Origin: a bacterium
GTDB lineage: Bacteria; Zhuqueibacterota; Zhuqueibacteria; Residuimicrobiales; Krinioviventaceae
Length of the DNA: 64,000 nucleotides
Direction of reading: 5' to 3'
Assembly: GCA_963693055.1 (NCBI GenBank)
Contig: OY843751.1
Location: 1,370,072 to 1,434,071, forward strand
In this document: positions 4,432-36,026 of the stretch, one piece after another
How positions within the stretch are numbered: the first letter of the stretch is position 1
Layout of the letters: each line of letters begins with the position of its first letter
The notes under the pieces: model-generated
Database searches by the model: none
What the model was told of the DNA's origin: nothing
The model's input: only the letters and a program-made list of their open reading frames with translations
Made by a program: the position numbers and the translations under genes

Positions 4432-4987
4432 GTTCTCCTTTGTTTTCAGATTCATGCCTTGGGGGAAAGATACCATTTATACATATAATATAATTTAAAC
4501 AGAAAAATGGCATCATATTCTCATGACCCTCGCCATCGCCTGTCATACCAATCATATTTTTTTTCATTAATACATCTTTATCTTTTCTATAAAAATGATA
4601 TTTGTTAGAACTACTGTTTTGTGCCGGATAATTATTTTCAGGATCATTAACCAAACCTGTTCTACCTGGTGTTGTAGTACATTGTAAAAGGTGATTATGT
4701 AATGGCATTTGATCTCTTTCCAATATTATTTTTTCATATCCACCATGATTCCCAAGATTGAAGTTTGACGATTCTCCTTGACCGGTCCCAACCGGTATAC
4801 ATCCGCGCAAATCCGGCAATGCTATTGTAGTTCGGCCATCACCCCCAAAATTGTTGCCGATTAGGGCTGCAAGTGCCTTGTGATCTGAAATGGATAATAG
4901 TGATCCATCACAAATTGCCCAATTGGTAGGGATTTTGGGGCCAGCAAAAAGTGCAATTTCTCCCAGAAAACTGTTTAAACCTGCCAT
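4418..4987 (-). CDS. Phage tail collar domain protein (MdpB-like), paralog 2
   Basis: FAGPKIPTNWAICDGSLLSISDHKALAALIGNNFGGDGRTTIALPDLRGCIPVG...LHNH...NMMPFFCLNYIICINGIFP matches the tail-collar (microcystin-dependent protein) family. Confidence 0.75.
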   Translation of the reverse strand: MAGLNSFLGEIALFAGPKIPTNWAICDGSLLSISDHKALAALIGNNFGGDGRTTIALPDLRGCIPVGTGQGESSNFNLGNHGGYEKIILERDQMPLHNHLLQCTTTPGRTGLVNDPENNYPAQNSSSNKYHFYRKDKDVLMKKNMIGMTGDGEGHENMMPFFCLNYIICINGIFPPRHESENKGEHDGQ

Positions 4988-5003
4988 TTTTTATCTCCTG
5001 AAT

Positions 5004-5531
5004 TTATTCAACTGGTTCCTGTTCATGAGGATATGTACCTTCAACACATATGATATAATGCAAAGCCAAAAAAGGCTGCATGTTAGAGTGCCCGTTGATA
5101 CCACCTTCCTGGCTTATTATCTCATCTCCCATTGTTTTGTTATCATGTTCTGCGCAATAACATAAAATGTTTTCAAGGTTTGGTTTTGCGAAAATATTGT
5201 TTTGGGGCTCGAAAGATTTTGTTGTATCACTAACATCACAAAATACAGAGTGGCTATGAGACGGTGTATGATATTTTTGTAGATTAGATTTTTCTTTTCC
5301 CAGATAGGTTGCAAGATTATAGTTGCCTTCTCCCATTACTGCTCTGCCATTTAGGTTAGGTAAAGCAAAATATTCATGACCGTCCCCTCCATATTTTATA
5401 TGAATAATAGAATACAGTTTTGTGTATTTTACAATCTTTAGCATATCACCATTACAGAACATCCAGTTCTTGGGTAGATAACTCCCGGCATAAAGTTTAA
5501 TGGTTCCAATAAAATCATTGTTTTCTTGCAT
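5004..5531 (-). CDS. Phage tail collar domain protein (MdpB-like), paralog 1
   Basis: YAGSYLPKNWMFCNGDMLKIVKYTKLYSIIHIKYGGDGHEYFALPNLNGRAVMG...SHSHSV...NMQPFLALHYIICVEGTYP. Confidence 0.75.
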   Translation of the reverse strand: MQENNDFIGTIKLYAGSYLPKNWMFCNGDMLKIVKYTKLYSIIHIKYGGDGHEYFALPNLNGRAVMGEGNYNLATYLGKEKSNLQKYHTPSHSHSVFCDVSDTTKSFEPQNNIFAKPNLENILCYCAEHDNKTMGDEIISQEGGINGHSNMQPFLALHYIICVEGTYPHEQEPVE

Positions 5532-5849
5532 AAACCCTCCTGTTTGATTTTTGAATTTGGAATTGTCAAACCAGTCCCCTTAATTTTGCCCGGTTTTATT
5601 AACAGGAATTGTATTGGAGGGACCAATTTATTCATATACAAATGCAACTGAATTGATGTAAAGATATGGAATATATTGATGCCCTAACAAGCACATATGT
5701 TTCAAAATGCAGAGATTATGTTGCATTTGAGATGTTGAAAGGTGATTTTTCGAGAAAAAATTGTATTTTGCGGATAATTGGTTTATGAATTGAAAAACTT
5801 TAATTCAGGGTTCTGATAGTATTTAAATTGTGAATGGTGTGTAAAGAAA

Positions 5850-5879
5850 CCTCCCCGGAATCATCGATTCCAGGGAGGG
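5850..5879 (-). terminator. Candidate rho-independent terminator of 5886..7061
   Basis: Inverted repeat CCTCCCCGGAATC-atc-GATTCCAGGGAGG, with one G.U position on the minus-strand RNA, 7 nt downstream of the minus-strand stop and followed on that strand by GUUUCUUUAC. Confidence 0.45.
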
Positions 5880-11114: not shown

Positions 11115-11385
11115 TTTTGCTCCTATGGAATTTTGGGTTTAAACTGCAATCACACATAAAGTAAAAATTAATATACAATGATTCAATGAAAAATATAAAG
11201 CAGTCAGTTTTATAATACTCTGTTGTAAATGTAAGCATTGTTGGGGACTGAAACCAAGTCTGTAAGTTGCAAAAGGCCGATGCTATGTTGCATTAAAGAA
11301 AAGTAGGGAAAAATTTGTCAAGTAAGCGGTGAAAAATATGGGGGGGACCGGCAAATGGGCGCCAGTCCCTAACAAAAGCAAGAAT

Positions 11386-20146: not shown

Positions 20147-20770
20147 GGGGAATTTCGACGGATAGAAAAAATTCCCAGACACCGATGAGGTGCCTGGGAA
20201 TAGTAATGTTCTATATGTGAAATAGGGATGGTTTTTATGGAACCTGCGAATTTTTACCACTATTGGGTTTAACCACCAAATAGTCTGTAGCGTTAACACT
20301 GCCATTCATGTTACAGTCAGAGGGATTATAACTCGCTGATCCGCTTTGGCCTTTGACAGTGAGATAGTCGGTCGCGTTTATAATACCGCTGTTATTCGCG
20401 TCTCCACTAAACATACCGTAAATGCCGGTTTCTAACTGTGCAGCGCTGCCGCCGTAATATTTGTCATAGGGTGTTGATTCATCCACGGTAAAATTATAGG
20501 TTGTCAGTGTACCGCTTAAACTCTGTGCTGTGGCGCTCATGATTGCCAAATGATTGCGGTGACGAATGACAATGTAATAGTCGCCCGGTGCCAGACCTGT
20601 GAGGGTGAGGTTGGTTACGGTACCATCGTCCTCAGCCAGATAGCCGTCGCTGCGCAGGATATAAGAGCGGCTGTACACAGCTTCACCATCTACAGTTGAG
20701 CGTAATTCCATACAAACCCAGTCGGTAATGCCTTCGGGGATACTGCCGGCATTACGATTGTCAGAATAGA
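20147..20770. repeat. Near-identical ~0.6-kb duplicated block (copy A) covering the 3' coding end of 20235..22340 plus its terminator
   Basis: 20147-~20770 is essentially identical to 23627-~24250. The encoded C-terminal ~170 aa are nearly identical (NRNAGSIPEGITDWVCMELRSTVDGEAVYSRSY...NSGKNSQVP), as are the 88 bp downstream of the stop. Confidence 0.8.
20161..20200 (-). terminator. Rho-independent terminator of 20235..22340 (inside the duplicated block)
   Basis: Minus-strand RNA forms UUCCCAGGCACC-ucauc-GGUGUCUGGGAA (12 bp, one G.U) followed by UUUUUUCUAUC. Confidence 0.55.
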
Positions 20771-22340
20771 AAGAGGTTGCGGGAATAATGCCTGCCAGAT
20801 TTGTGCCCATATTGTGGGCGCCGCTATCATAGGGGCCTTGCAGATAGACTTTGACGGCAAGCTGGGGCGTTCCTTCGTCAGTGGTAAACGATTTTACATT
20901 GCCATAAAAAGTGCCGTAACAATTGGAACAAAAAGTGCGATGATAATAGGTGGTGTTGGGCGCAAGACTGGTCACTGTGCCTGAAAAAAAGCCAAATCCG
21001 CTGCCCATGGGTGCTTGTTCATCTGCCAGGGTAGGTGTTTTGTTGGTGGAGCTGTAACAAACACCCCGACGAAGTGTAGTGACTCCATTGTATTCATAGA
21101 CATTGCCGCCAAACTCGGCAGTGGTGGCGGTAATGCTTTCCGCGTCGTACGAAGCGATGCAGTAAGGATCAATATAATATGTATCTGAGCTGCCTTTTTT
21201 AATACCCACAATGCCGTCGTCACTGCCCACCAAGAGGTCAACTCTTCTATCGCCGTTCAGGTCGGTTTGGGCCAGAACAGATTTGTCGCCTACATCAATG
21301 TCATTCCAGTTTGTGGTTACTCTGGAAAACGATAATGATGCAATACCGCTTTGCTGATAAAGCTGAATTTGACCGTCAACATTGCCAATAAAAAACTCAT
21401 ATCTAGAGTTATTATCATAATAACAAAACATGGGTGACGGCAGCTCGCCAACGTCAATGGAATTGAAATTATCGCTGACAAGCGTAAAAGTGGTAGATGT
21501 CCCGCTGTCTTGTTGGTAATGGTAAATGGCGCCGCCCAGGTTGCCCACCAGCAGATCGAGGCGGCCATTCCGATCGAGATCGGTAAAAGTAGGTTTAGAG
21601 TACCCACCCACATCAATACCGCTCAGGGCACCGACAAGGGTAAACGACGCGGAGCGGTCGCTGTCTTGTTCAAAATGGCGCAGGGTACCGTCGTCGCGGC
21701 CCATGATCAGGTCAAGCAGGCCGTCATCATCCAGGTCTGTAACCGTGGGGAAATTACAGGTGCCTACATCAATATTGTTAAAGTAAGATGTGATGAGATT
21801 GAATGAAAACGAGTTGATCTCAGATTGTTCATATCGCGATATTCTGCCGTTTTTATTGCCTACCAGCATGTCCAGCAGGCCATCTCCATCAATGTCGGTT
21901 ATGGTGGGGGCGGCGTTTTCGCCCACGTTGATATTGGTCATGTCTGACGTTTCAAATTGTAGTGAATAACCATAGCTGCCCGTACCGGCGCGGTTGGTGG
22001 CGCTGACCCGCCAAAAATAGTAGGTACTGTTGGCGGGCAGATCAACAGCATAGTTTGTGTCTTCTATGCCGGTATATGTTCCCACAATGTCGGTAAATTG
22101 ATAATCATTCGCGATCTGAACGTTATAAGTCAGGGCATGGTCTATGTTTTCCCAAAATAAATAGGCCCGGCAAGAGAGCAGCTCAAGATTGGGATATCTG
22201 GGACCGACCAGTTCAGGCGCCGGACTTGGCGCTCTGGATGTGAGGGATACCGCTCCTGATTCGCCATTTCCCGTTTGTGCAAATGTTGTGCTGGTAAAGG
22301 CCAAAACCCATACTACCAAAAGAACAAATAATTTTTTCAT
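20235..22340 (-). CDS. Secreted FN3 + FG-GAP/beta-propeller repeat protein with dockerin-like C-terminal double calcium-binding repeat
   Basis: 701 aa with signal peptide MKKLFVLLVVWVLAFTSTTFAQ. It has an FN3 domain, repeated FG-GAP-like motifs (DIDGDGLLDMLVGN, TDLDDDGLLDLIMG, TDLDRNGRLDLLVGN), and a C-terminus GDANNSGIINATDYLTVK...DCNMNGSVNATDYLVVK (two 12-residue Ca-loop-like segments each followed by a YLxVK helix start). There is no T9SS CTD. Confidence 0.8.
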   Translation of the reverse strand: MKKLFVLLVVWVLAFTSTTFAQTGNGESGAVSLTSRAPSPAPELVGPRYPNLELLSCRAYLFWENIDHALTYNVQIANDYQFTDIVGTYTGIEDTNYAVDLPANSTYYFWRVSATNRAGTGSYGYSLQFETSDMTNINVGENAAPTITDIDGDGLLDMLVGNKNGRISRYEQSEINSFSFNLITSYFNNIDVGTCNFPTVTDLDDDGLLDLIMGRDDGTLRHFEQDSDRSASFTLVGALSGIDVGGYSKPTFTDLDRNGRLDLLVGNLGGAIYHYQQDSGTSTTFTLVSDNFNSIDVGELPSPMFCYYDNNSRYEFFIGNVDGQIQLYQQSGIASLSFSRVTTNWNDIDVGDKSVLAQTDLNGDRRVDLLVGSDDGIVGIKKGSSDTYYIDPYCIASYDAESITATTAEFGGNVYEYNGVTTLRRGVCYSSTNKTPTLADEQAPMGSGFGFFSGTVTSLAPNTTYYHRTFCSNCYGTFYGNVKSFTTDEGTPQLAVKVYLQGPYDSGAHNMGTNLAGIIPATSFYSDNRNAGSIPEGITDWVCMELRSTVDGEAVYSRSYILRSDGYLAEDDGTVTNLTLTGLAPGDYYIVIRHRNHLAIMSATAQSLSGTLTTYNFTVDESTPYDKYYGGSAAQLETGIYGMFSGDANNSGIINATDYLTVKGQSGSASYNPSDCNMNGSVNATDYLVVKPNSGKNSQVP

Positions 22341-22393
22341 GTTAACCCCTATTATAGTTGTTAATTAATAACATCTTTGTTTATGATCATTGG

Positions 22394-23332
22394 TTAATCT
22401 TTGACCAGGCGGATAGAAAATCCGTAAGTAAAACTTTGATTTGAGCGTGTAATCTCTGTATCGCCGTTGTATAATCCTCGCGTCCATGCGGCCTTTTGGG
22501 GATTCCCAGACAAAACATATTGAGTGGATGACCAAAAATCAGTTGATGATCCCAATAGGGAGCTAATTTTATCGAATCGATAACCACCTGGAAGAGCGGT
22601 AAAACGGCTTTTGTTGGTAGCCCCGGTGTTTGGGCTGTCCCAATGGGTTGTTCCTGTTTCTTTAAGTTTCCCTCCGGCCATTGTACCCCCAAGTGTATTT
22701 TGTAATGTGTTCCATTCGTCATCCGTAGGAACATGCCAGCCGTTTGGAGCTATGCTTCTGCTATCATTTACTGCATACCAATTATATAAATAACCGTATG
22801 TTTCAATAAACGTTACAGCCGATGAATAGCCATAACGTGCACCAGTACTTATGTTCTTCCAAGATGTATTATAGTCAACTTTAGGTATTTCGTCACCATT
22901 TCTGTACTGTGTTTCTTTTAAATTCTCAGCCATCCACCACTGGTCGCCAATCTTGACGGTTTTGTACACCGTGCCGTCGTTGCCGGTCATGGTGCTGAAA
23001 AAATAGTAGAGTACACACACTTTGAACTGGCTGCCACTGGTATTGGGATTGTCCGCGTAAAAGTCCCACACAATGTGCTTGTCTGTGCCCGCTGTTATGT
23101 CCACACCAAGGTCGCCGGAAAGGCTGACGCATTTCAGGTCCCATGTTGCGCCGTTGTCGTTAGAGGCTTCGACTGCAATTTCAGTATTATACCCTTGGGG
23201 ATTGCTGAAATCGTAATAGATGTCGACCATGAAATTGCCGTCTGTGCGTTGTGCCACCCGTATGTTGGAAACCTGGGCGAACAGGCAGCCGGTCAGTGAA
23301 ATCAACAATAAAGCAGTGAATAGTAATCTCAT
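22394..23332 (-). CDS. FISUMP-domain (Fibrobacter succinogenes major paralogous domain, TIGR02145-like) secreted protein/lipoprotein, tandem paralog 1
   Basis: TMTGNDGTVYKTVKIGDQWWMAENL...YGYLYNWYAV...APNGWHVPTDDEWNTLQNTLGG...KLKETG...FTALPGGYR...FWSST...AWTRGLYNG...GFSIRLVKD. Lipobox-like LTGC after the signal peptide. Start placed at the second ATG (GAGGAG RBS). Confidence 0.8.
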   Translation of the reverse strand: MRLLFTALLLISLTGCLFAQVSNIRVAQRTDGNFMVDIYYDFSNPQGYNTEIAVEASNDNGATWDLKCVSLSGDLGVDITAGTDKHIVWDFYADNPNTSGSQFKVCVLYYFFSTMTGNDGTVYKTVKIGDQWWMAENLKETQYRNGDEIPKVDYNTSWKNISTGARYGYSSAVTFIETYGYLYNWYAVNDSRSIAPNGWHVPTDDEWNTLQNTLGGTMAGGKLKETGTTHWDSPNTGATNKSRFTALPGGYRFDKISSLLGSSTDFWSSTQYVLSGNPQKAAWTRGLYNGDTEITRSNQSFTYGFSIRLVKD

Positions 23333-23543
23333 TGTTCTCCTCATTCGTTATGTAAAAACCAATGCTTAACTCTAAATACCCGGGCATTGCTATTCCATAC
23401 TTTTTGTAGGAAATGCTTGTTACGGTATCTGCATCTGCATATTTTTATTCCCTCAAAAAGAACAGGCACTGCTGTAGTATTCAGAACCTAATAAAATGTC
23501 AATGTTGGAAAAGTGTTAGATTGAATTTAAGCAATTTCGCAAT

Positions 23544-23594
23544 ACAGTACCAAGCACACATGTCGCAAAAACCAGTACATATGTCGCATTTGAA
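23544..23594 (-). promoter_or_regulatory. Candidate operator: two direct copies of ACA(C/T)ATGTCGCA spaced 20 bp, upstream of FISUMP gene 22394..23332
   Basis: ACAGTACCAAGCACACATGTCGCAAAAACCAGTACATATGTCGCATTTG; the same 50-bp element recurs at 30054..30103 upstream of another FISUMP paralog. The core ACATATGT is palindromic. Confidence 0.4.
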
Positions 23595-23626
23595 TCGATT
23601 TTTAATGCTTTGGGGGTTGGAGCTGG

Positions 23627-24250
23627 TGGGAATTTCGACGGATAGAAAAAATTCCCAGACACCGATGAGGTGCCTGGGAATAGTAATGTTCTATATGTGA
23701 AATAGGGATGGTTTTTATGGAACCTGCGAATTTTTACCACTATTGGGTTTAACCACCAAATAGTCTGTAGCGTTAACACTGCCATTCATGTTACAGTCAG
23801 AGGGATTATAACTCGCTGATCCGCTTTGGCCTTTGACAGTGAGATAGTCGGTCGCGTTTATAATACCGCTGTTATTCGCGTCTCCACTAAACATACCGTA
23901 AATGCCGGTATCTAACTGTGCAGCGCTGCCGCCGTAATATTTGTCATAGGGTGTTGATTCATCCACGGTAAAATTATAGGTTGTCAGTGTACCGCTTAAA
24001 CTCTGCGCTGTGGCGCTCATGATTGCTAAATGGTTGCGGTGACGAATGACAATGTAATAGTCGCCCGGGGCCAAGCCAGTGAGGGTGAGGTTGGTTACTG
24101 AACCATCGTCCTCAGCCAGATAGCCGTCGCTGCGCAGGAGATAAGAGCGGCTGTACACAGCTTCACCATCTACAGTTGAGCGTAATTCCATACAAACCCA
24201 GTCGGTAATGCCTTCGGGGATACTGCCGGCATTACGATTGTCGGCATGGG
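23627..24250. repeat. Near-identical ~0.6-kb duplicated block (copy B) covering the 3' coding end of 23715..25802 plus its terminator
   Basis: See copy A (20147..20770); identity extends through the terminator hairpin and 3' flank. Confidence 0.8.
23641..23680 (-). terminator. Rho-independent terminator of 23715..25802 (duplicate of 20161..20200)
   Basis: Sequence identical to the hairpin and U-run at 20161..20200. Confidence 0.55.
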
Positions 24251-25802
24251 GAGAAGTTGCTGGTATTTTACCGGCCAAATTCATACGCATGGCGTGCGCG
24301 GCGGTATTATATGTGCCTTGCAGAAAGACTTTGACGGCAAGTCGGGGGTCGCCTTCATCGGTGGTAAATGATCTTGTTGTTCCATAAAAGGTGCCGTAAC
24401 AATTGGACCCAAACGTACGGTAATAATAGGTAGTATTGGGAGCAAGCCCGGTCACAATGTCTGAAAAACTTCCTGACGAACTGCCCATTGAGACCATGTT
24501 GTCTGTCATGACGGGCGGATTGGTGGTACTGTAAATGACACCGCGTCGCTGCACCGGTACGCCATTATGATTAGAAAAACGACCACCCAGTTCAGCGGAT
24601 GATTCGGTTATGTTTTCCGCCGCGTCCGTTGACATGGAAACATCAATACGATAAGTATCTCCTTTTTTAATACCAACAATGCCATCACCACCACCGACCA
24701 ACAGGTCAACGCGTTTATTACCGTCCAGATCGGTTTGAGCCAGTATTGATCTTTCGCCAACATCAATGTCATTCCAATCCGTGGTTGCACTGGAAAACGA
24801 TAATGATGCAATACCGCTTTGCTGATAAAGCTGGATTTTACCGTTTTCAGCACCTATAAAAAGCTCTAAATTATTTCCCGCATCGTAATAACAAAACATG
24901 GGTGAAGAGTCACCGCTGACATCAATAGAATTGAAATTATCACTAACCAAGGTAAAGGACAATGAATACTTGGCGTCCTGTTCGTAATGACGAATGGTGC
25001 CCTCCAAGGTGCCCACCAGCAGGTCAAAGTAGCCATCCAAATCCAGGTCAGTAAAAGTGGGTTTAGACCAAGAGCCCGCATCGATGCCGCTCAAAGCGCC
25101 AATATAGGTAAAGGATGCTGAACGCTCGCTGTCTTGTTCATAATGTTGCAGGGTGCCGTCGCCGCGGCCTATGAGCAGGTCAAGCAAGCCGTCGCCATCC
25201 AGATCAGCAACTGTGGGGGAACTACCAACACCGACATCAATATCGCTAAAATTTGACGTAATGAGGTTTAATGAAAACGAGTTGACAGCCGTTTGTTCAT
25301 AACGGGTCAGTGTACCGTCATGATTGCCCACCAGCATATCTAACAGACCGTCGGCGTCAATATCGGTCATGGTTGGGGCGGCGTAACTGCCCACGTTGAT
25401 GCTGGTCATATCTGATGTTTCAAATTGCAGTATATAACTATATTGGCCTGTGCCGGCGCGGTTGGTGGCACTGACCCGCCAGTGATAGGTGGTACTGTTG
25501 GCGGGCAGATCGGCAGCATACTCTGTTTCTGTTATGCCGGTATATGTTCCTATTATATTGTCAAATTCCCAATCAGTTGCGATTTCTAAGTTATAGGTTT
25601 GGACATGGTCCATGTTTTCCCAAAATAGATAGGCCCGGCAAGATAGCAGGTCTGTATTGGGGTATCTGGGACCGACCAACTCTGGCGAACCGGGAGGCAT
25701 GGAAGTCAGAGACACTGTAGAAGATTCGACGCTACCATTAGCTGTTAAACCGCATACGGCAAATAACAAAAGCATTAAAATTATCATGTTTAAATTTTTC
25801 AT
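23715..25802 (-). CDS. Secreted FN3 + FG-GAP/beta-propeller repeat protein with dockerin-like C-terminus (paralog of 20235..22340)
   Basis: Start moved to MKNLNMIILMLLLFAVCGLTANG at 25802 (AAAGGA RBS); the track ORF extends spuriously to 25964. FG-GAP motifs DIDADGLLDMLVGN, ADLDGDGLLDLLIG, TDLDLDGYFDLLVG; the C-terminal ~170 aa are identical to the paralog. Confidence 0.8.
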   Translation of the reverse strand: MKNLNMIILMLLLFAVCGLTANGSVESSTVSLTSMPPGSPELVGPRYPNTDLLSCRAYLFWENMDHVQTYNLEIATDWEFDNIIGTYTGITETEYAADLPANSTTYHWRVSATNRAGTGQYSYILQFETSDMTSINVGSYAAPTMTDIDADGLLDMLVGNHDGTLTRYEQTAVNSFSLNLITSNFSDIDVGVGSSPTVADLDGDGLLDLLIGRGDGTLQHYEQDSERSASFTYIGALSGIDAGSWSKPTFTDLDLDGYFDLLVGTLEGTIRHYEQDAKYSLSFTLVSDNFNSIDVSGDSSPMFCYYDAGNNLELFIGAENGKIQLYQQSGIASLSFSSATTDWNDIDVGERSILAQTDLDGNKRVDLLVGGGDGIVGIKKGDTYRIDVSMSTDAAENITESSAELGGRFSNHNGVPVQRRGVIYSTTNPPVMTDNMVSMGSSSGSFSDIVTGLAPNTTYYYRTFGSNCYGTFYGTTRSFTTDEGDPRLAVKVFLQGTYNTAAHAMRMNLAGKIPATSPHADNRNAGSIPEGITDWVCMELRSTVDGEAVYSRSYLLRSDGYLAEDDGSVTNLTLTGLAPGDYYIVIRHRNHLAIMSATAQSLSGTLTTYNFTVDESTPYDKYYGGSAAQLDTGIYGMFSGDANNSGIINATDYLTVKGQSGSASYNPSDCNMNGSVNATDYLVVKPNSGKNSQVP

Positions 25803-25855
25803 ACTATCCTTTCTACTTGATTTATACAGGTCTTCAGGAAACCCTTTTTGTAAAA

Positions 25856-26827
25856 TTAATCTTTGACCAACCGTACTGAAAATCCATACCCGGCAATTGC
25901 AGACCGTCTCTGGATACCGGATTCGTAATAAAAAAGCATGCGTATTGTATTTGTAGATGCCCAATATCCGGTTTCATAGCCCAAAGGGGGATAGGAATTC
26001 ATTATACCTCCATCCCAAGCACTTTTGCGAAAAGACCCTGGTGTGGCAGAAAAATGCCAGATGTCAGAAGAACCATATCCATCCATGTACCATCCTCTTG
26101 TAGTTTTTAATTGATTCCCTTGATCCGTGCCGCGATATACACCTCCCTTATTGGCTTCTTCTTCACTCATGCCCATAAACATTTCCAGTTCTATCCAGTC
26201 CTCATCCGTGGAAAGGTGCCACCCGGGAGGGGCAATGTTTCTGCTATCCGCACAAGCATACATATTATATACATAACCATAGCTTTCAGCATAACTTTCA
26301 TCATTGTCATATACACCTCGTGCTCCAATTTCATTCTCGTTACAATCTTGCCATCCCGCAATATCATCCGGGTAAACAATGTCAGAGCCGTCACGGTATT
26401 TTGTTTCTCTTAAATTTTCACGCATCCACCACTGGTTGCCAATTTTAATGGTCTTGTATATCCTGTCGTCATTGCCGGTCATGGTCCCATATAAAGTATA
26501 CAAAATTTGAATTTTGAGCTGGCTGCCGCTGGTATTGGGATGGTCGGCGTAATAGTCCCATACGATGTGTTTGTCTGTTCCGGGTGTAGTCACATATCCT
26601 TTATCACCCGAGAGGCTGGAACATTTTAAATTCCACGTAACGCCATTATCTTCTGAAGCTTTGATTCCGATATCTGCAGCTTCACATACCGGATCAACAA
26701 TGTCATACCATATGTCAACCATAAAAGTGCCATCGGTGCGTTGTTGCACGCGCAGGTTGGTGACCCCTTGCGCCAACAGGCAGCCAACGGTCAAGAGTAA
26801 TGTTGTTACTGTTGTTGAAAATTTCAT
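25856..26827 (-). CDS. FISUMP-domain secreted lipoprotein, tandem paralog 2
   Basis: MKFSTTVTTLLLTVGCLLAQ (lipobox), then an N-terminal Ig-like domain and a FISUMP domain (IYKTIKIGNQWWMRENL...YGYVYNMYA...APPGWHLSTDEDWIELE...GFSVRLVKD). Start at 26827 with a GAGGGA RBS. Confidence 0.8.
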   Translation of the reverse strand: MKFSTTVTTLLLTVGCLLAQGVTNLRVQQRTDGTFMVDIWYDIVDPVCEAADIGIKASEDNGVTWNLKCSSLSGDKGYVTTPGTDKHIVWDYYADHPNTSGSQLKIQILYTLYGTMTGNDDRIYKTIKIGNQWWMRENLRETKYRDGSDIVYPDDIAGWQDCNENEIGARGVYDNDESYAESYGYVYNMYACADSRNIAPPGWHLSTDEDWIELEMFMGMSEEEANKGGVYRGTDQGNQLKTTRGWYMDGYGSSDIWHFSATPGSFRKSAWDGGIMNSYPPLGYETGYWASTNTIRMLFYYESGIQRRSAIAGYGFSVRLVKD

Positions 26828-26934
26828 GATATCCCTCATTTCTGTATCCGGGTTAGCTCTTTAATCTCGCACACACCGGAAATTGACTCTACACTTTTAA
26901 TAATTGTAACTGTACATGACGCGCCACAAATGAA

Positions 26935-27873
26935 TTAATCTTTAATTAAACGCAGAGAACATCCACATTCCCTGTACTCTTCATCAAATATGACATAAGT
27001 AGCAGCACTGGCTAATAGCATAATATCCGCGAAGAAAGAACGAGATGATGTTGAGGCCCATAGGGATGATGCATTTTCAAGATTTCGAAAATATCCTGAT
27101 AAAGGAGCATCCAAACGGACAAACCGGTCTCCCGCGCCAAGGGCTGTAAATCCGCTTGAATTTGTTGCATTAACATTATAAGAGTTCCAATGCATGGTAC
27201 CCTGTTCTTTAAGTTTGGAACAGGCGTCATTAAAAAGATAGTTTTTTAGCGCATTCCACTCTCCCTTTGAAGGCACATGCCATCCCTCGGGCGCTATTTG
27301 ACGGGCATCATCAACCACAAACCAGTTGTAAAGGTAACCATAAACATTGCCAAGCGAGTCCGAATTGTTATAAGAACAGCGTGCCCCGGTAGACAATCCA
27401 TACCAATTATAATTATTTTTCTCTACAGGTATCGGGTCGCCATTTCTGTATAATGTCTCTTTTAAATTCTCCGCCATCCAAACCTGATTGCCGATTATAA
27501 CGGTTTTATACAGTTTTCCGTCATTGCCCATCATATAGTCATCTCTGGCAGTTAAACGTACTTTGTATTGATTGCCTGAGACATTGGGATTGTCTGCATA
27601 AAAATCCCACACAATATGTTTGTCCGTACCCGGGGTGATATTTCCACCCACATCACCCGTCAGGTGTGTGCACATTAAATCCCATGTCGCTCCGTTATCT
27701 GCCGAGGCTTCAACCAATATGGCAAGCATATTCTCCCCAGAATAAGCTAAATTGTACCAGATATCCGTTATAAATGTGCCGTCGGTGCGCTGCTGCACGC
27801 GCACGTTTGAGACCTGGGCGTACAGGCAGCCAACGGTCAAGAATAATGTTGTTACCGTTGTTAAAAATTTCAT
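26935..27873 (-). CDS. FISUMP-domain secreted lipoprotein, tandem paralog 3
   Basis: MKFLTTVTTLFLTVGCLYAQ, then LYKTVIIGNQVWMAENLKETLYRNGDPIP...YGYLYNWFVV...APEGWHVPSKGEWNALKNYL...GFTALGAGDR...CGCSLRLIKD. Start at 27873 with a GAGGAA RBS. Its upstream intergenic region is about 85% identical to that of paralog 2. Confidence 0.8.
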   Translation of the reverse strand: MKFLTTVTTLFLTVGCLYAQVSNVRVQQRTDGTFITDIWYNLAYSGENMLAILVEASADNGATWDLMCTHLTGDVGGNITPGTDKHIVWDFYADNPNVSGNQYKVRLTARDDYMMGNDGKLYKTVIIGNQVWMAENLKETLYRNGDPIPVEKNNYNWYGLSTGARCSYNNSDSLGNVYGYLYNWFVVDDARQIAPEGWHVPSKGEWNALKNYLFNDACSKLKEQGTMHWNSYNVNATNSSGFTALGAGDRFVRLDAPLSGYFRNLENASSLWASTSSRSFFADIMLLASAATYVIFDEEYRECGCSLRLIKD

Positions 27874-27980
27874 GTTATTCCTCATTGCTGTATCCAGGTC
27901 AGAGCTTTGATCTTGCACACACCGGTAATTGACCATACACTTTCAATAATTGTAACTATATATGACGCACCACAAATGAA

Positions 27981-28916
27981 TTAATCTTTTATTAAACGTA
28001 TTGTACATCCGTGCTTTTTATTAATCAAATAATTATACATAGTATCTGTATTGTAACTCATTGTTAAGCTCCCACCATTAATGCCGTTAACATCTTGTTG
28101 GGCTAACCATATCCAGGCGTCCTCCCATATGTCATTAAAATTACCATCGTCATTTCGTCTTCCGGCCGCTATTGCTGTAAAGCCGCTTTCATTTGTGGCG
28201 GCGGTATTGGGATAATCCCAATGAGCATATCCGGTTTCTTTCATTTTTCCACCTTTCGAACCCCCTAAAAAATCATATAAATCACTAAAATCATAATAAG
28301 TTGGAACATGCCATCCGGAAGGCGCAAGATTACCGGTTGCGACAACATACCAATTATATAAATAACCATAGCTGTTTGTGTAATTTTCATTATTATTATA
28401 CACACACCGGGCGCCGGTTTCCAAAGTGGACCATGTGGAACTGCTGGCTACAACCGGTATACTACTAATACCGTTTCTGTATTTTGTTTCCCTTAAATTT
28501 TCAGCCATCCACCATTGGTTACCAATCTTGACGGTTTTGTACACTTTACCGTCGTTACCGGTCATGGTGCTGTTATAAAAAAACAAAAGACGGACCTTGT
28601 ACTGGTTACCACTGGTGTTAGGATGGTCGGCGTAAAAGTCCCATTCAATGTGCTTGTCCGTTCCCGCGGTAATTCCTTCACCCACATCGCCGGTGAGGCT
28701 AGAGCAAGACAGGTTCCATGATGCTCCATTGTCATGAGAAGCTTCTATTATTATTTCGGCGGTTTTTGTATAAGAATCTCCCTCAAAACCCAGATCATAC
28801 CAGATATCAACCACAAAATTGCCATCTGTGCGTTGAACCACCCGCACGTTGGAGACCTGAGCGTACAGGCCGCCGGTCATAAGGAGGAATGTCATTATTG
28901 TAATTTGAAATCTCAT
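27981..28916 (-). CDS. FISUMP-domain secreted protein, tandem paralog 4
   Basis: VYKTVKIGNQWWMAENLRETKYRNG...YGYLYNWYVV...APSGWHVPTYYDFSDLYDFLGG...GFTAIAAGRR...GCTIRLIKD. Start at the second ATG (GAGGTA RBS). Confidence 0.8.
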   Translation of the reverse strand: MRFQITIMTFLLMTGGLYAQVSNVRVVQRTDGNFVVDIWYDLGFEGDSYTKTAEIIIEASHDNGASWNLSCSSLTGDVGEGITAGTDKHIEWDFYADHPNTSGNQYKVRLLFFYNSTMTGNDGKVYKTVKIGNQWWMAENLRETKYRNGISSIPVVASSSTWSTLETGARCVYNNNENYTNSYGYLYNWYVVATGNLAPSGWHVPTYYDFSDLYDFLGGSKGGKMKETGYAHWDYPNTAATNESGFTAIAAGRRNDDGNFNDIWEDAWIWLAQQDVNGINGGSLTMSYNTDTMYNYLINKKHGCTIRLIKD

Positions 28917-28950
28917 TCTGTACCTCATTATTTATACATTAGCTCAACAG

Positions 28951-29926
28951 TTAGTTCTTTACTAGACAGACCGAATGTCCTTTTCCTTTTTCGTCATAAA
29001 GACGGTAAATATTTAAATTATAACAGAGTATGTAACGTTTCAATGCTTCATTTTCGCCATAGGATGAAGCAGACCAAAAATAGGCACGGATTCTCTTGTC
29101 AATAAAAATGCCTTGAATGTTGGAACAACAACCGCCCGGTGTCGCTGTAAAAAGGCTTACGGCAAAATTAACATCATTTTTTGAAACATCATCTTGTAAC
29201 AAATTTGCACGATCCGCCAGTTTACTACCTTCATCATCTCCGTAATCCAGATTTATTTTTGTCATCTACACTCATACCCAATGCGCGTTCCAGTTCCTTC
29301 CAGTCGGCATCTGTGTGAACATGCCAACCGTTTGGAAAAAAATCATGCGGATTTTCCAGATCCACAACTTACCAATTGTATAAATAACCAAAAGTTGAAG
29401 CATTATCTGGATTATTATCAAAATAACAATAAGCGCCAATATTAATATTAGTCCAATCCTGATTGTTTACTGTGGTTGCTATGGTTGACCCATCGTTATA
29501 ATGCTTTCCCCTTAAATTTTTTGCCATCCACCATTGGTTACCAATTTTTATTGTTGGGTACACATTAGCATCGTAATCCCTCATGGTGTCGGTTAATAAA
29601 AGAATTACACGTATTTTAAACTGATTACCGTTAGTGTTAGGGTTGTTTGTGTAAAAATCCCAAACAATGTGTTTGTCCGTACCCGCTGTGATATCCTCAC
29701 CAGCGTCGCTGGTAATGCTGGAACAATTCAGATCCCAGGTTGTGCCATTGTCGTCAGAGGCTTGAATAATTATTTCGTTATCACATCCTTCGGAATTATT
29801 GAAATCGTACCAGATATCAACTATAAAAGTGCCGTCTGTGCGTTGTTGAACTCTCATGTTGGAAACCTGGGTGAATAGACTGCCGGTTATATTAATTATT
29901 AAAAATATAGTATATAGTGATCTCAT
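28951..29926 (-). pseudogene. Disrupted fifth FISUMP paralog (premature stop after YGYLYNW plus at least two frameshifts)
   Basis: ORF 29369..30067 encodes the N-terminal domain plus the first half of FISUMP (PTIKIGNQWWMAKNL...FGYLYNW*). The continuation FPNGWHVHTDADWKELERALGMSV is in a second frame, and ORF 28951..29265 (FTATPGG...FWSASSYGENEA...SVCLVKN) is in a third. Homopolymer runs A7/T7 lie at the junction. Confidence 0.6.
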
Positions 29927-30053
29927 AAAAATTCTTGTATATTTGAATTGTCTTACAAATAGGCAAGATTCCTGGAAAGATTTAGACGGCATGTTGTAAA
30001 AAAAATTTTTACAACGATTTATTCTTGTTTTAAAATTTACAAAAATAAACAAA

Positions 30054-30103
30054 ACAGTACCAAGCACATATGTCGCAAAAACCAGTACATATGTCGCATT
30101 TGG
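30054..30103 (-). promoter_or_regulatory. Second copy of the ACATATGTCGCA x2 operator-like element, upstream of the disrupted FISUMP paralog and just downstream of the hybrid kinase gene
   Basis: ACAGTACCAAGCACATATGTCGCAAAAACCAGTACATATGTCGCATTTG matches 23544..23594 except for one base. Confidence 0.4.
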
Positions 30104-30121: not shown

Positions 30122-32926
30122 TTAAAAAGTGTATTGGGAAGGAGATTTGCCAAACCGTTTTTTAAAGCAGCGTCTGAAATAGTCAGGGCTGCCGAACCCG
30201 GTTTGGTAGGCAATTTCTGATATGGTGGCGGTTTTACTTTCTAACATTTGAATAGCATGTTTTAGCCGGATTGAATGGATAAAATCAACAACAGTTTGGT
30301 TGGTAAGCGCATGGATCTTGCGGTGCAATTGTGAGCGAGACAAGGCCATCTTACTGCTTAACCAGTCTACACTCAGATCGGGATTGTTTAAATGCATTTC
30401 AATCAAATCCGCCGCACGCTTTAAAAAAACCTCATCGGCAGGCATGACCGCAATATCTTTAAGGGGGGTTGTGATTTGTTTGTTAAATCGTTGGCGCAGT
30501 TTTCGGCGCTGATCGATAAGGTTTTTGATCCGTACTTTGAGCTCGTCCGGTTCAAAAGGTTTGGTAAGATAGTCGTCAGCACCCAAGGTAAGGCCTTCAA
30601 TTTTGCTGGCACTGTCTGAACGGGCGGTAAGTAACACAACAGGTATATGGCTGGTGCGTTCATCGGTTTTCAATTTTTCACAGAACTGGTACCCGTCCAT
30701 GTTGGGCATCATTACATCACTGATTACCAAGTCGGGAATGCAATTGATTGCCTGTAGCAAACCGTCTTTGCCATCGACTGCTTCCAGTATTTCATATTCA
30801 TCTTCAATAATCTCATGAATATAGGCGCGCAGCTCTGAATGGTCTTCGGTAATGAGAATGATGGGGGCATCTTTTTTCTTTGAATGTCGAACAGGAACAG
30901 GCTTGTCATCCTTGTCATGTATATCCACAGGTGGTTGTTTGGTACTCTTGAAATTCAAAGAGGGTACTGGTGCAAAATCTTGTTCTGAAAAATGATCTTT
31001 TCCCAAAGGCAGATGTACAGTAAATGTGCTGCCCTTGTCTATTTCACTGGATACTGAAATTTTACCACGATGCAGAAGCACAAGTTCGCGAGCCAGTGCC
31101 AGCCCAATTCCGCTGCCTTGCTGGTTTTGTGGGTATCCGTTTTCAACCTGGTAAAACCGATCGAAAATATGTTCAAGGTGCTCATCTGGAATCCCTGGAC
31201 CGGTGTCTGATATGCTGATTTCCAGGGAATCGTTTTGAGAAACCGAAACTTTGATCTCTCCACCGGTGGGTGTGAATTTAACAGCATTTGATAAAAGATT
31301 GCCTAGTACTTTGTCGATTTTATCCCGATCAATCCAGACATAGGCAGCATTTAAACCGGTTTCATATATCAAACTGATTTGATGATGAACTACATGAGAT
31401 TCAAATGTCTGACATACACCTTTAATTAGTGGCCAAATATCTGTTTTTTTAACTTTTAATTCCATACGTCCTGATTCAATGCGGGAAAGGTCAAGCAGCT
31501 CATTCACCAGGTTTAAAAGTCGGCGACCATTCTTTAACTGTAAACGTGACCTCTTTCGTATGTTTTTATCTTGTGATTCATTCAGAATCTGTTGTGCTGT
31601 ACCCAGAATCAGGGTGAGGGGGGTACGGAATTCATGGGAAATATTGGCAAAAAATCGGGATTTCATTTTATCAATTTCTTTAAACTTTTCCGATTCGATG
31701 ACTTTTTTCTGAGCAATCTCTTTTTGGCGATTGTTTTCAATATACCTGTCAATGATGATCAATGTAAGACAGATAACAAAACCCAGGGTGCCGAAATGAA
31801 TCAGTCTGATATTTGATGATATATTGATCACATAATGCAGAAAAAGTTCAAGACCACCAAATAAATAAAAAATAATCAATCCTATAAAAAGTAACTTGAT
31901 TTCGCGCTTACCTTTGGTTGAACTCTTGATCACCAGAATAAAATTGGTTGTGGCGCTTGTGGAAGTAATTATAAAAAATAATTGATAAAACAGATCCGTA
32001 AAACGGTTCTTGATAATAATCATTGACAATATTGATAGTAATAGAAAAAACAGGTGGCCCTTCCAAAAACGTCTGACGACAGGTTTGAATTTTTTAGTGA
32101 TAATCTGTTCCGTGAGATACAAGCCGCCAATGGGTGAAGACATTAATGAGAAAAAATCCAGTAAAAAAAAGAGTCGCGGAGCATAGACCATTGTTTGAAG
32201 AAAGTAAGAATTGCTTCCTGTAAAGATACCAATTGAAATTAAAAATGTAGCAATTCCAATCAATAGATTGTTTCTCTGCACAAATAAATAAATAAATAAT
32301 AGTACAAAGCCAAGAATAATAAAAAGCGGGGCAAAGATGATTTCATCTATATCTTTGATAAATAGTTTTTTTAAAATAATGTCTGCCGGGGCAAGCCAGA
32401 TGGGTTGATTTAAACCTATTGTAGATTTATCGGACCAGATTCGAAAACAAAGAATACCTTTGGAATAATCATCGGGAAGACGTACAAGCATCATATGCCA
32501 GCCAACAAACAAATCTTTGTTTGTTGTGAAATCACCAAATTGATAGATTTGTTGGTCATTTAGGTAAACCTGAACAATTTGCCTTACACTGGGGAAAAAT
32601 AACGCAGGGTCTGAGTCTTTAGTATCCGGAAGCTGTGTTCGTATCCACAAACTATTATATCCCGTATTGGGGATGTCGTCAAAGTTTTCTACGGATATCC
32701 ATTTGTTTGAATCAATACCGTCATCCAACCAGATTAAATGTCCGTTTGCATCTTTAGGAGAATCCCCAATACGATACTGCCAACCGTTCTCAATATTATA
32801 TATCTCGTTTGATGTATTGGTATTATAGTTAATGATATTCGTTTCTTTGCCGAAACAAAGCGTTGAATATAATATAATTACAAACAAAATATATGTTAAG
32901 ACCAATGGTCGATTAGTCAGAATCAC
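30122..32926 (-). CDS. Hybrid two-component system sensor histidine kinase/response regulator with 7TMR-DISM sensor and C-terminal AraC-type HTH
   Basis: 934 aa. It has an N-terminal extracytoplasmic 7TMR-DISMED2-like domain plus a 7-TM region, HisKA (FFANISHEFRTPLTLILG), HATPase_c (GSGIGLALAREL), a receiver (DLVISDVMMPNMDGYQFCEKLK) and an AraC HTH (QTGFGSPDYFRRCFKKRFGKSPSQY). Confidence 0.85.
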   Translation of the reverse strand: MILTNRPLVLTYILFVIILYSTLCFGKETNIINYNTNTSNEIYNIENGWQYRIGDSPKDANGHLIWLDDGIDSNKWISVENFDDIPNTGYNSLWIRTQLPDTKDSDPALFFPSVRQIVQVYLNDQQIYQFGDFTTNKDLFVGWHMMLVRLPDDYSKGILCFRIWSDKSTIGLNQPIWLAPADIILKKLFIKDIDEIIFAPLFIILGFVLLFIYLFVQRNNLLIGIATFLISIGIFTGSNSYFLQTMVYAPRLFFLLDFFSLMSSPIGGLYLTEQIITKKFKPVVRRFWKGHLFFLLLSILSMIIIKNRFTDLFYQLFFIITSTSATTNFILVIKSSTKGKREIKLLFIGLIIFYLFGGLELFLHYVINISSNIRLIHFGTLGFVICLTLIIIDRYIENNRQKEIAQKKVIESEKFKEIDKMKSRFFANISHEFRTPLTLILGTAQQILNESQDKNIRKRSRLQLKNGRRLLNLVNELLDLSRIESGRMELKVKKTDIWPLIKGVCQTFESHVVHHQISLIYETGLNAAYVWIDRDKIDKVLGNLLSNAVKFTPTGGEIKVSVSQNDSLEISISDTGPGIPDEHLEHIFDRFYQVENGYPQNQQGSGIGLALARELVLLHRGKISVSSEIDKGSTFTVHLPLGKDHFSEQDFAPVPSLNFKSTKQPPVDIHDKDDKPVPVRHSKKKDAPIILITEDHSELRAYIHEIIEDEYEILEAVDGKDGLLQAINCIPDLVISDVMMPNMDGYQFCEKLKTDERTSHIPVVLLTARSDSASKIEGLTLGADDYLTKPFEPDELKVRIKNLIDQRRKLRQRFNKQITTPLKDIAVMPADEVFLKRAADLIEMHLNNPDLSVDWLSSKMALSRSQLHRKIHALTNQTVVDFIHSIRLKHAIQMLESKTATISEIAYQTGFGSPDYFRRCFKKRFGKSPSQYTF

Positions 32927-34391: not shown

Positions 34392-36026
34392 TTAGTACAT
34401 ACCACCCATACCACCCATGTCGCCGCCAGGAGGCATTGGCATGGCTGATTTTTCTTCGGGTTTGTCTACAATTGTTGCTTCGGTCATGAGTAACAGAGAT
34501 GCAACACTTGCAGCATTTTCTAAAGCAATACGAGTAACTTTGGTTGGGTCAATTACGCCGGCTTCATAAAGATCTTCATAAGTTTCTGAAGCAGCGTTGA
34601 AACCAAAACCATCTTTGCCTTCTTTAACTTTTTGAATAACGATAGAACCTTCAAGTCCTGCATTTTCAGAGATCTGACGCAGAGGTTCTTCAAGAACGCG
34701 TTTCAAGATATTGATACCAATTTCTTCATCGCCGTCAACTTTAACTTTATCCAGTGCGGGAAGTGCGCGAATGATTGCAACACCACCACCAGGGATGATA
34801 CCTTCTTCAACTGCTGCGCGGGTTGCGTGCAGAGCGTCTTCAACGCGGGCTTTCTTTTCTTTCATTTCTACTTCAGTTGCAGCGCCTACGTTCAATACAG
34901 CAACACCACCGGCCAATTTTGCCAGACGTTCCTGCAATTTTTCTTTATCATAGTCAGAAGAAGTGGTTTCGATCTGTTTTTTGATTTGTGCAATTCTACC
35001 TTTAATATCTTCGGTTTTGCCAGCGCCTTCAACGATAGTTGTGTTGTCTTTATCGATGGTAACGCGTTTTGCAGAACCCAGATCGGTTACAGTTGCGTTT
35101 TCAAGTTTGAAACCGGTTTCTTCAGAAACAACGCGTCCACCCGTCAGGATAGAGATATCTTCCAGCATGGCTTTACGACGATCACCAAAACCAGGAGCTT
35201 TAATAGCTGCAACGCGCAGGGTGCCACGCAATTTGTTAACAACCAAAGTTGCCAATGCTTCGCCTTCAATATCTTCAGCGATGATCAATAAGGGTTTGCC
35301 CATTTGAGCAACTTTTTCAAGAATTGGCAGCAAGTCTTTCATTGCGCTGATTTTTTTGTCATGGATGAGGATCAATGCTTCATCCAAAACGGCTTCCATG
35401 CTTTCCTGATCGGTAGCAAAATAGGGAGAGAGGTAACCACGGTCAAACTGCATACCTTCAACAACTTCAAGATAAGTATCGGTTGTTTTGGCTTCTTCAA
35501 CAGTAATAACACCGTCTTTACCAACTTTTTCCATAGCGTCTGCAATCAAGTCACCAATTTCAGAGTCATTGTTTGCAGAGATAGAGCCAACCTGTGCAAT
35601 TTCTTTTTTGCCAGGAAGAGGTTTGCTCATGCTTTGTAATTCCTCGATAACGGCTTTAACGCCTTTTTCGATACCACGTTTAATAGAAGTAGGGTTAGCA
35701 CCAGCGGTCACGTTTTTCAGACCTTCGCGGCAAATTCCCTGAGCCAGAACGGTTGCAGTAGTGGTTCCATCACCGGCAATATCACTGGTTTTGGAAGCAA
35801 CTTCTTTAACCATCTGTGCGCCCATATTTTCCAATGGATCTTCAAGTTCAATTTCTTTAGCAACGGTAACACCGTCTTTAGTTACTGTAGGAGCACCAAA
35901 TTTTTTGTCGATAACAACGTTACGGCCTTTGGGTCCCAGAGTAACTTTAACGGCATTTGCTAATTGATCAACGCCGCGTTTCAGGGCGTTTCTTGCCTCT
36001 ACATCAAAGGTTACAATCTTTGGCAT
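34392..36026 (-). CDS. groL: Chaperonin GroEL (60-kDa chaperonin)
   Basis: 544 aa. [38 protein letters not shown]...[24 protein letters not shown]...C-terminal GGMGGMY tail. Confidence 0.97.

Follow-up and report, generated by a model that had tools for sequence, protein, structure and literature searches.

Background

Regulation by hybrid two-component systems (HTCS) was first described as specific to the Bacteroidetes and to polysaccharide-utilization loci. In Bacteroides, comparative genomics predicted HTCS motifs built as direct repeats, their mean distance being 21 bp (PMC3878776); DNase footprinting of BT4124 located half-sites in tandem at a distance of about 21 bp (PMC13292587); and an S/CHIP latch in the alpha3-beta4 loop of the receiver domain (REC) is a hallmark of these regulators (PMC11253607). 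Herein we analyse a stretch of 64,000 nucleotides from contig OY843751.1 (hereafter the window, with its first letter as position 1), in which an element of about 50 bp is found in two nearly identical copies upstream of genes for FISUMP proteins, copy A at 23544-23594 and copy B at 30054-30103, the latter lying directly behind the gene of a hybrid regulator whose DNA-binding domain is of AraC type. As judged from sequence comparison, each copy is probably a tandem-repeat operator of this adjacent HTCS-like regulator, joined to the sigma-A promoter that it would activate. The kind of element and its mechanism are already known, and what is new is the present example.

When compared with the HTCS of Bacteroides, such as BT4124/BT4111 with their sites in front of bt4114 and bt4108, and those whose regulons are predicted in RegPrecise, the window regulator shows the same combination of membrane sensor, HisKA, HATPase, REC and AraC domain in a single polypeptide, the same latch in REC, which reads SHIP here (PMC11253607), the same arrangement of two half-sites as direct repeats at about 21 bp (PMC3878776, PMC13292587), and the same operator position, beside the regulator gene and before the genes to be controlled. 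The differences lie in the sensor, which is 7TMR-DISM here whereas theirs is the Reg_prop/Y_Y_Y beta-propeller (COG3292); in the host, which is an uncultured KSB1-like bacterium and not a member of Bacteroidota; in the targets, which are FISUMP, FG-GAP/dockerin, Collar-domain and type IX secretion system (T9SS)-tail proteins instead of SusC/SusD polysaccharide-utilization loci; and in the half-site itself, which is TGCGACAT here, whereas some published Bacteroides motifs are repeats such as AAGAGTGTA (PMC3878776).

Two other groups of direct-repeat sites bear comparison with the element. The class II activator sites of AraC/XylS proteins, such as araI1-I2 of E. coli AraC, XylS at Pm and those of RhaS/RhaR, are likewise made of two half-sites in direct repeat, each about 17 bp long and with centres 21 bp apart, where the proximal one touches or overlaps the upstream promoter element and each half-site is read by the two helix-turn-helix (HTH) motifs of one AraC domain. 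However, an N-terminal ligand-binding domain provides dimerisation and signal in those proteins, a role which here would fall to the fused histidine-kinase dimer and to phosphorylation, and the promoter here looks like the -33/-7 type of Bacteroidetes and not like the -35/-10 type. The LytTR operators of AgrA, ComE and AlgR share the two direct repeats, the 21-bp period and the position upstream of the promoter, but their consensus [TA][AC][CA]GTTN[AG][TG] misfits the core TGCRACAT of the element, and no LytTR regulator is linked to the element, the linked DNA-binding domain being of AraC type.

Anatomy of the duplicated element

The initial annotation had reported an almost identical 50-bp sequence at the two places, and in fact both copies are found there: our repeat search pairs 23524-23592 with 30034-30102 (family D10; 69 nt, 87% identity), and within this pair a 49-nt core is identical at 48 of 49 positions (about 98%), and by the one base that differs copy A has ACACATGT where copy B has ACATATGT. 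Read along the coding (minus) strand, the sequence of the element is CAAATGCGACATATGTACTGGTTTTTGCGACATRTGTGCTTGGTACTG. The 12-mer ACAYATGTCGCA, which was described as a box present twice in each element, occurs exactly four times in the window and is confined to the two copies, while the other six matches carry two mismatches each, the total of 10 being equal to the shuffle mean of 10.0 at the same tolerance. Two details of that description need revision. The boxes start 21 bp apart (23556 to 23577 in A, 30066 to 30087 in B) and not 20 bp, and the palindrome ACATATGT, regarded as the heart of the box, is incidental: orthologous sites show ACAAATGT, ACATCTGT, ACATGCGG or ACATATTG in its place, and the conserved feature is the asymmetric core TGCRACAT. 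On the minus strand each copy consists of two half-sites in tandem, each about 17 bp long, TGCGACATRTGTRCTKG, and as their starts are 21 bp, or two helical turns, apart, both are on one face of the helix.

The flanks of the two copies and the remaining intergenic DNA give no alignment between the loci, as had been noticed before, and the FISUMP coding DNA beside the copies is 69-73% identical between them (families D1 and D2), while the duplicated coding DNA overall is 62-80% identical (D1-D5). Against such values of 69-73% in the FISUMP genes nearby, the identity of about 98% in the element is higher than expected for a neutral duplicate. The FISUMP start codons, at 23344 and 29926, are about 200 and 128 nt away, in agreement with the distances given earlier.

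A promoter-like layout is found in a fixed phase to the boxes. With offsets counted from the T of the proximal TGCRACAT as 0, a -33-like CTTG is located at +13..+16, at the 3' end of the proximal half-site, in all 11 sites of the KSB1 clade, and a -7-like TAnnTT(T) box begins at +38 (to +45) in 10 of the 11, the site in L003 having it at +39. The spacer between CTTG and TAnnTT is 21 nt in the clade sites, where the criterion was about 19-21 nt, and the boxes are imperfect. The sigma-A consensus of Bacteroidetes is TTTG at -33 and TAnnTTTG at -7 (PMC7366714). The layout suggests a promoter of this Bacteroidetes type with a start about 51 bp after the beginning of the proximal box, the use of such promoters by KSB1 being presumed. 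The predicted transcription starts are near 23516 for copy A, 30026 for copy B, and 5653 and 11220 for two further sites, C and D, described below; counted from such a start, the half-sites would occupy about -72 to -56 and -51 to -35.

Other promoter types were tried and rejected. For a sigma-54 promoter, site A offers TGGTAC-N5-TTGC, i.e. GG-N9-GC, which is one base short, and the GC is gone in site B and the GG in L002; for an invertible promoter, there are no flanking inverted repeats. A scan for classical -35/-10 promoters gave 20 promoter-like sites compared with 22.2 in shuffles, none of them at the element, for which the -33/-7 layout is the better fit.

The hybrid regulator and its linkage to the element

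The hybrid regulator beside copy B is a single polypeptide in which a membrane sensor is followed by HisKA, HATPase_c, REC and an AraC-type HTH. Its N-terminus is 7TMR-DISM, with no Pfam match to Reg_prop or Y_Y_Y. The regulator looks functional from its sequence, since the H-box SHEFRTPL, the receiver Asp region and the SHIP latch in REC (TSHIPVV; translation DERTSHIPVVLLTA) are all present. No study of 7TMR-DISM/AraC hybrid regulators came up in a literature search aimed at them.

Homologues of the regulator (44-90% identity) were collected by protein search alone, and their contigs were then fetched. The two-box element is found downstream of the regulator gene and on the same strand for 10 of the 11 regulators, namely P0001, P0002, P0003, P0004, P0005, P0007, P0008, P0009, P0011 and P0014 (Table 1). 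From the stop codon to the element the distance is 19-100 bp where the target operon directly follows, and it extends with an intervening mini-AraC or other gene, to 243 bp for P0014 and up to about 1.75 kb for P0008. As the gene after the element differs between loci, the element tracks the regulator and not FISUMP. In the window both copies precede a FISUMP gene, as the initial annotation had it, while in other genomes the products of the downstream genes also include PTL_trimer, YadA-head/Peptidase_S74, Collar-domain, FG-GAP, fn3/T9SS and mini-AraC proteins.

When the relaxed pattern GCRACR, 13-17 nt, GCRACR was searched over about 180 kb of homologue loci together with the window, matches were found at these intergenic sites only, all of them with a period of exactly 21 bp and on the regulator strand. 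All sites are on the strand of the downstream gene, and those remote from regulators (A, C and D in the window, 22533 in L001, and one in L048) directly precede secreted-protein genes. Because the remote sites precede such genes, and because A, C and D come after hairpins, the element is a 5' feature of its targets and not a 3' feature of the regulator gene. The site in L048 belongs to a close relative, the metagenome-assembled genome CAXXMD01, where it stands before a secreted FG-GAP/VCBS protein; another site in this genome precedes a 288-aa protein followed by a paralogous regulator (L040).

Across the regulator family neither the first recognition helix, SRSQLHRK, nor the TGCRACAT core changes; the second HTH and the 3' part of the half-site are both variable. 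A possible correspondence between box base 4 (G/A) and residues of the DNA-binding domain was considered and not used, as the two columns that split the groups both lie outside any recognition helix and the 10 proteins are confounded by phylogeny.

In distant relatives, mini-AraC genes (110-117 aa, DNA-binding domain only) are located right behind the operator and are followed by secreted-protein genes; there is no such gene in the window. The mini-AraC protein may act as a relay, or it may compete for these sites. Genes for integrases of insertion-sequence type (rve) are found near some regulator loci (L001 7420-8226, L003 12554-13555), with no association to the operator.

Further sites and gene context

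Besides copies A and B (sites A and B), the window has two further sites of the same type, C and D, which were absent from the initial annotation; site C is at the position orthologous to a second site of L001, and site D was found with a position weight matrix made from the 11 clade sites. Site A (ortholog of L001 12830) scores 70.3 and site C (ortholog of L001 22533, which is before a Collar-domain gene) scores 57.6, both being in the training set; site D, which is outside the training set, scores 23.7 compared with a maximum of 6.2 in 20 random windows. Behind site C come three Collar-domain genes, from 5531 to 3874, and then a T9SS-tail gene (2506-3846); behind site D comes an fn3/T9SS-tail gene (8496-11114). 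No SusC/SusD or TonB-dependent receptor gene is found among the scanned open reading frames (ORFs) around the four sites.

The genes in question all lie on the minus strand, where the order is GroEL (34392-36026), a T9SS-tail protein, the hybrid regulator, copy B, four FISUMP genes, FG-GAP/dockerin, the terminator, copy A, FISUMP and FG-GAP/dockerin; as the order recurs behind copies B and A, the unit of element, FISUMP and FG-GAP is duplicated. At site B the extended element reaches 30103, 18 nt past the regulator stop codon (30122-30124), and its first box starts at 30098. Site A is set apart from the preceding operon, because the terminator of the upstream FG-GAP/dockerin gene lies between them. 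GC-rich terminator-like hairpins with T-runs are also found at 11341-11369 and 5845-5868 (both on the minus strand), just upstream of sites D and C, and since such a hairpin precedes each of them, sites A, C and D each mark the start of a separate transcription unit.

Table 1. Locations of the operators, promoter-like boxes and genes in the window, and of the regulator homologues and mini-AraC genes on other contigs.
Feature	Location	Strand	Details
Site A operator	23551..23588	-	distal half-site 23588-23572 TGCGACATATGTACTGG; proximal half-site 23567-23551 TGCGACATGTGTGCTTG; CTTG 23554-23551
Site A -7-like box TAAATTCA	23522..23529	-	+38..+45 from proximal box
Intrinsic terminator of upstream FG-GAP/dockerin gene	23651..23681	-	13-bp stem then T-run; -26.3 kcal/mol, z = -5.8
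FISUMP gene, first behind site A	22394..23344	-	next: FG-GAP/dockerin gene 20235-22340
Site B operator	30061..30098	-	distal half-site 30098-30082; proximal half-site 30077-30061 TGCGACATATGTGCTTG; CTTG 30064-30061
Site B -7-like box TAAATTTT	30032..30039	-	predicted transcription start near 30026
Operon behind site B	23715..29926	-	FISUMP 29369-29926, ORF 28951-29265, full-length FISUMP 27981-28928, 26935-27936 and 25856-26839, FG-GAP/dockerin 23715-25964
Site C operator	5688..5725 (site 5729-5688)	-	boxes TGCAACAT, TGAAACAT; CTTG 5691-5688; -7-like box TATCTTTA 5666-5659
Site D operator	11255..11292 (site 11296-11255)	-	boxes TGCAACAT, TGCAACTT; CTTG 11258-11255; -7-like box TACATTTA 11233-11226
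Hybrid regulator, 934 aa	30122..32926	-	Pfam: 7TMR-DISM_7TM, HisKA, HATPase_c, Response_reg, HTH_18/HTH_AraC
Regulator homologue P0002	L001		90% identity; FISUMP next
Regulator homologue P0003	L002		70% identity; FISUMP next
Regulator homologue P0004	L157		60% identity; FISUMP next
Regulator homologue P0005	L003		53% identity; PTL_trimer protein next
Regulator homologue P0007	L004		54% identity; YadA_head/Peptidase_S74 proteins next
Regulator homologue P0008	L007		50% identity; 110-117-aa AraC-only protein next
Regulator homologues P0009 and P0011	L009		48% and 47% identity; 110-117-aa AraC-only protein next
Regulator homologue P0014	L158		44% identity; 110-117-aa AraC-only protein next
Mini-AraC genes	L007 10754-11086; L009 5991-6344, 11931-12263; L158 6220-6570, 13319-13654; L159 14703-15056		

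Several features of the neighbouring genes can be described in their own right. The FISUMP-FG-GAP/dockerin operon is segmentally duplicated (20235-29926), with 22000-22219 and 25468-25687 being 80% identical, and the copy behind site B has its FISUMP gene amplified, with four paralogues in tandem that are mutually 62-86% identical. The first of these is truncated, with 185 aa (29369-29926) and then a separate 104-aa ORF (28951-29265), and 28951-29926 is probably a gene broken by a frameshift or nonsense mutation; a listed 232-aa ORF with a GTG start, which extends to 30067 and overlaps the operator, is probably not real. Both FG-GAP repeat proteins (20235-22340, 23715-25964) carry a C-terminal type I dockerin (E about 1e-5), a domain unusual outside the cellulosome-forming Firmicutes. 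The three Collar-domain (phage tail collar) genes on the minus strand (3874-5531) are small and tandem, and their order with the T9SS-tail gene is kept in L001; beside this cluster lies a gene (671-2413, plus strand) for a 580-aa protein with TPR and AraC HTH, which is a further candidate regulator. The window GroEL is 85-88% identical to proteins nearly all of which are named candidate division KSB1.

Occurrence in other phyla

A scan of 185,579 species genomes with the pattern AATGCRACA-N12-TTTGCRACAT revealed at least 118 stretches, where about 17 matches in 596 Gb would be expected by chance, a rough figure that assumes equal base frequencies. The neighbours of the matches were typed by tblastn with the domains of the window regulator. 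Among the matches listed, 18 lie within 600 bp downstream of a same-strand AraC domain, compared with 2 that are oppositely oriented; full hybrids of histidine kinase, REC and AraC account for 13 of the 18 regulators, and the AraC-linked matches come from Ignavibacteriaceae, Bacteroidales, Mucilaginibacter, Calditrichia and others. The sensors identified by Pfam are of several kinds: 7TMR-DISM in L092 of Mucilaginibacter and in L116, TPR in L034, L050 and L095, and the classical Reg_prop/Y_Y_Y, with the same operator core, in L029 of Ignavibacteriaceae and L053 of Bacteroidota. The regulators beside the matches share the recognition helix SR[ST]Q[LM][HF]RK and an xHIP latch, which is SHIP or NHIP, with KTSHIP/KTAHIP in L092, L034 and L116. 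Moreover, among the 116 unique matches listed, TA..TT peaks at +37/+38 (18, where the background is about 1 at each offset) and TTG has maxima at +42 (28) and +14 (13), and because these peaks stand at fixed offsets, a fixed phase between operator and promoter is common across the phyla.

Several recurrent variants of the operator were also observed. The variant AAATGCAACAAACTCGAAAGTATTTGCAACATACGCGTAAGTG is found in many Mucilaginibacter (L023, L035, L064, L066, L092, L097, L099-L101, L112 and L114); in L101 two copies of this type are separated by about 3.3 kb, and L092 contains a second one that has diverged further, and in both one operator copy is located just behind a 7TMR-DISM hybrid regulator. 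A metagenome scan with a stricter pattern gave 28 matches, of which only L129, L140, L141 and L154 belong to the family, the rest being unrelated recurrent repeats. A near-identical AATTGTTGCGACAAATCGGGGGGCGCCTGCGACATAACCTCTTGTTT on seven metagenome contigs (L133, L139, L143, L144, L149, L152, L156) has the 21-bp two-box layout with no detectable AraC gene nearby, and the unit TTTTGCAACATCTCATCTTGG, three times in tandem with a 21-bp period (L137 4469-4530, L155 4474-4535), makes a three-box motif. A full-text literature search for the core octamers found nothing relevant.

Proposed mechanism and alternative explanations

If the element is the operator of the adjacent regulator, a signal at the membrane sensor would lead to His-to-Asp phosphotransfer inside the dimer, which would set free the SHIP-latched AraC domains; the two DNA-binding domains would then occupy both half-sites in tandem, and the proximal one, beside the -33 element, would recruit RNA polymerase. 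As the outcome at least four secreted-protein operons in the window would be co-induced, namely the two FISUMP/FG-GAP operons, the Collar-domain cluster and the fn3/T9SS gene. That the element is an operator of a dimeric factor, probably of the hybrid AraC regulator next to it, had been proposed in the initial annotation, and the comparison now lends support to it, by the 10 of 11 homologues, by the matches in other phyla and by the published 21-bp half-sites of HTCS. Some observations nevertheless weigh against it. The -33-like box in the window is CTTG and not TTTG, and the -7-like boxes match TAnnTT(T) only. No site is detectable near the homologue P0016, and the source genome is not among the matches listed in the species-genome scan. 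The TGCRACAT core is common to many paralogous regulators, at least one of which, P0013 (44% identical), is encoded in the same genome, and the window has the TPR-AraC protein as well, so that the assignment of sites to binding proteins is ambiguous; sites C and D, with A-type or degenerate boxes, may belong to a paralogue. Finally BT4124, the only footprinted HTCS, acts as a repressor (PMC13292587), and for this reason activation is not to be assumed.

It is unlikely, in our view, that a real operator is bound by another AraC-type protein, be it a paralogue such as P0013, the TPR-AraC protein or, elsewhere, the AraC-only proteins, with the adjacent regulator linked by position alone. Such a binder would be in line with the paralogues sharing not only the core but also the SRSQLHRK helix, with the different box sequences of sites C/D and A/B, and with the mini-AraC genes directly behind the site in L007, L009 and L158; but it leaves aside that the site accompanies the hybrid regulator gene in 10 of 11 cases, that the window, L001, L003, L004 and L157 have the site with no mini-AraC or other AraC gene nearby, and that orthologous regulator loci retain the half-site over all its 17 bp, the variable 3' part included. 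Binding by the adjacent regulator could also result in repression, which we regard as quite unlikely here. The active BT4124 variant of Bacteroides thetaiotaomicron represses its targets via tandem half-sites (PMC13292587). The proximal half-site here overlaps the -33-like element, which makes occlusion of the promoter geometrically possible. However, sites at about -72 to -35 on one helix face, ending at -33, have the class II AraC/XylS activator layout known from araI and from XylS at Pm, the fixed phase to the -7 box is kept across phyla as expected for polymerase recruitment, and the imperfect -33/-7 boxes are usual in activator-dependent promoters.

The remaining explanations do without a binding protein. 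A structured RNA, whether 5' leader, small RNA or terminator of the regulator gene, could form if the two ACATATGT palindromes paired, and copy B does fold on its plus strand with z = -3.7; but copy A gives z = -0.3 on that strand, the coding strand gives z = 0.5 and -1.3, both the difference between A and B and the changes to ACAAATGT, ACATCTGT and ACATGCGG in orthologues disrupt the pairing with no compensation, the element has no match to an Rfam family, and the predicted transcription start lies downstream of it, all of which makes an RNA very improbable. Hardly any more credible is that the element has survived neutrally from a recent gene conversion or segmental duplication, or belongs to a mobile repeat. 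The FISUMP/FG-GAP operon is clearly duplicated and integrase genes are present in L001 and L003, yet it is the element alone that reaches about 98% identity, while the duplicated coding DNA and the other intergenic DNA have diverged, and it is kept in genomes whose regulators are just 44-70% identical. The random distribution or mobile repeat named in the initial annotation as arguments against a function is not what we find, as the copies sit in promoter positions and have neither flanking inverted repeats nor an associated transposase.

Conclusions

Proteins of the FISUMP and FG-GAP/dockerin types abound in Fibrobacter and in related bacteria of the Fibrobacteres-Chlorobi-Bacteroidetes (FCB) group, and we know of essentially no work that settles their roles and regulation, nor of more than a little experimental genetics in KSB1. 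With an operator-promoter module tied to one sensor regulator, a testable regulon can be defined, with at least four secreted-protein operons in the window and more in the related genome, and the module offers a simple assay, in which a latch-mutant REC-AraC fragment is used with the 38-bp DNA. TGCRACAT at a fixed distance from the -7 box beside hybrid regulators in several phyla suggests that regulation of the HTCS type is wider in both hosts and targets than first described, and the same recurrence suggests that the Bacteroidetes-type promoter architecture extends to KSB1.

From a broader point of view, one module of HisKA, HATPase, REC (xHIP) and AraC, combined with at least three kinds of sensor, may operate across the FCB phyla (KSB1, Calditrichia, Ignavibacteriaceae, Bacteroidota), where it would read TGCRACAT-N13-TGCRACAT in a fixed phase (box at 0, -33 at +13, -7 at +37/38) before a Bacteroidetes-type promoter, with its specificity in the 3' part of the half-site and the second HTH. 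In KSB1 its targets would be secreted and T9SS surface proteins (FISUMP, FG-GAP/dockerin, Collar-domain) and not polysaccharide-utilization loci, reached sometimes via an AraC-only relay. We put this forward tentatively, our judgement being nearly balanced and leaning slightly to doubt. If it is true, regulons would be predictable from sequence alone in several uncultured phyla.

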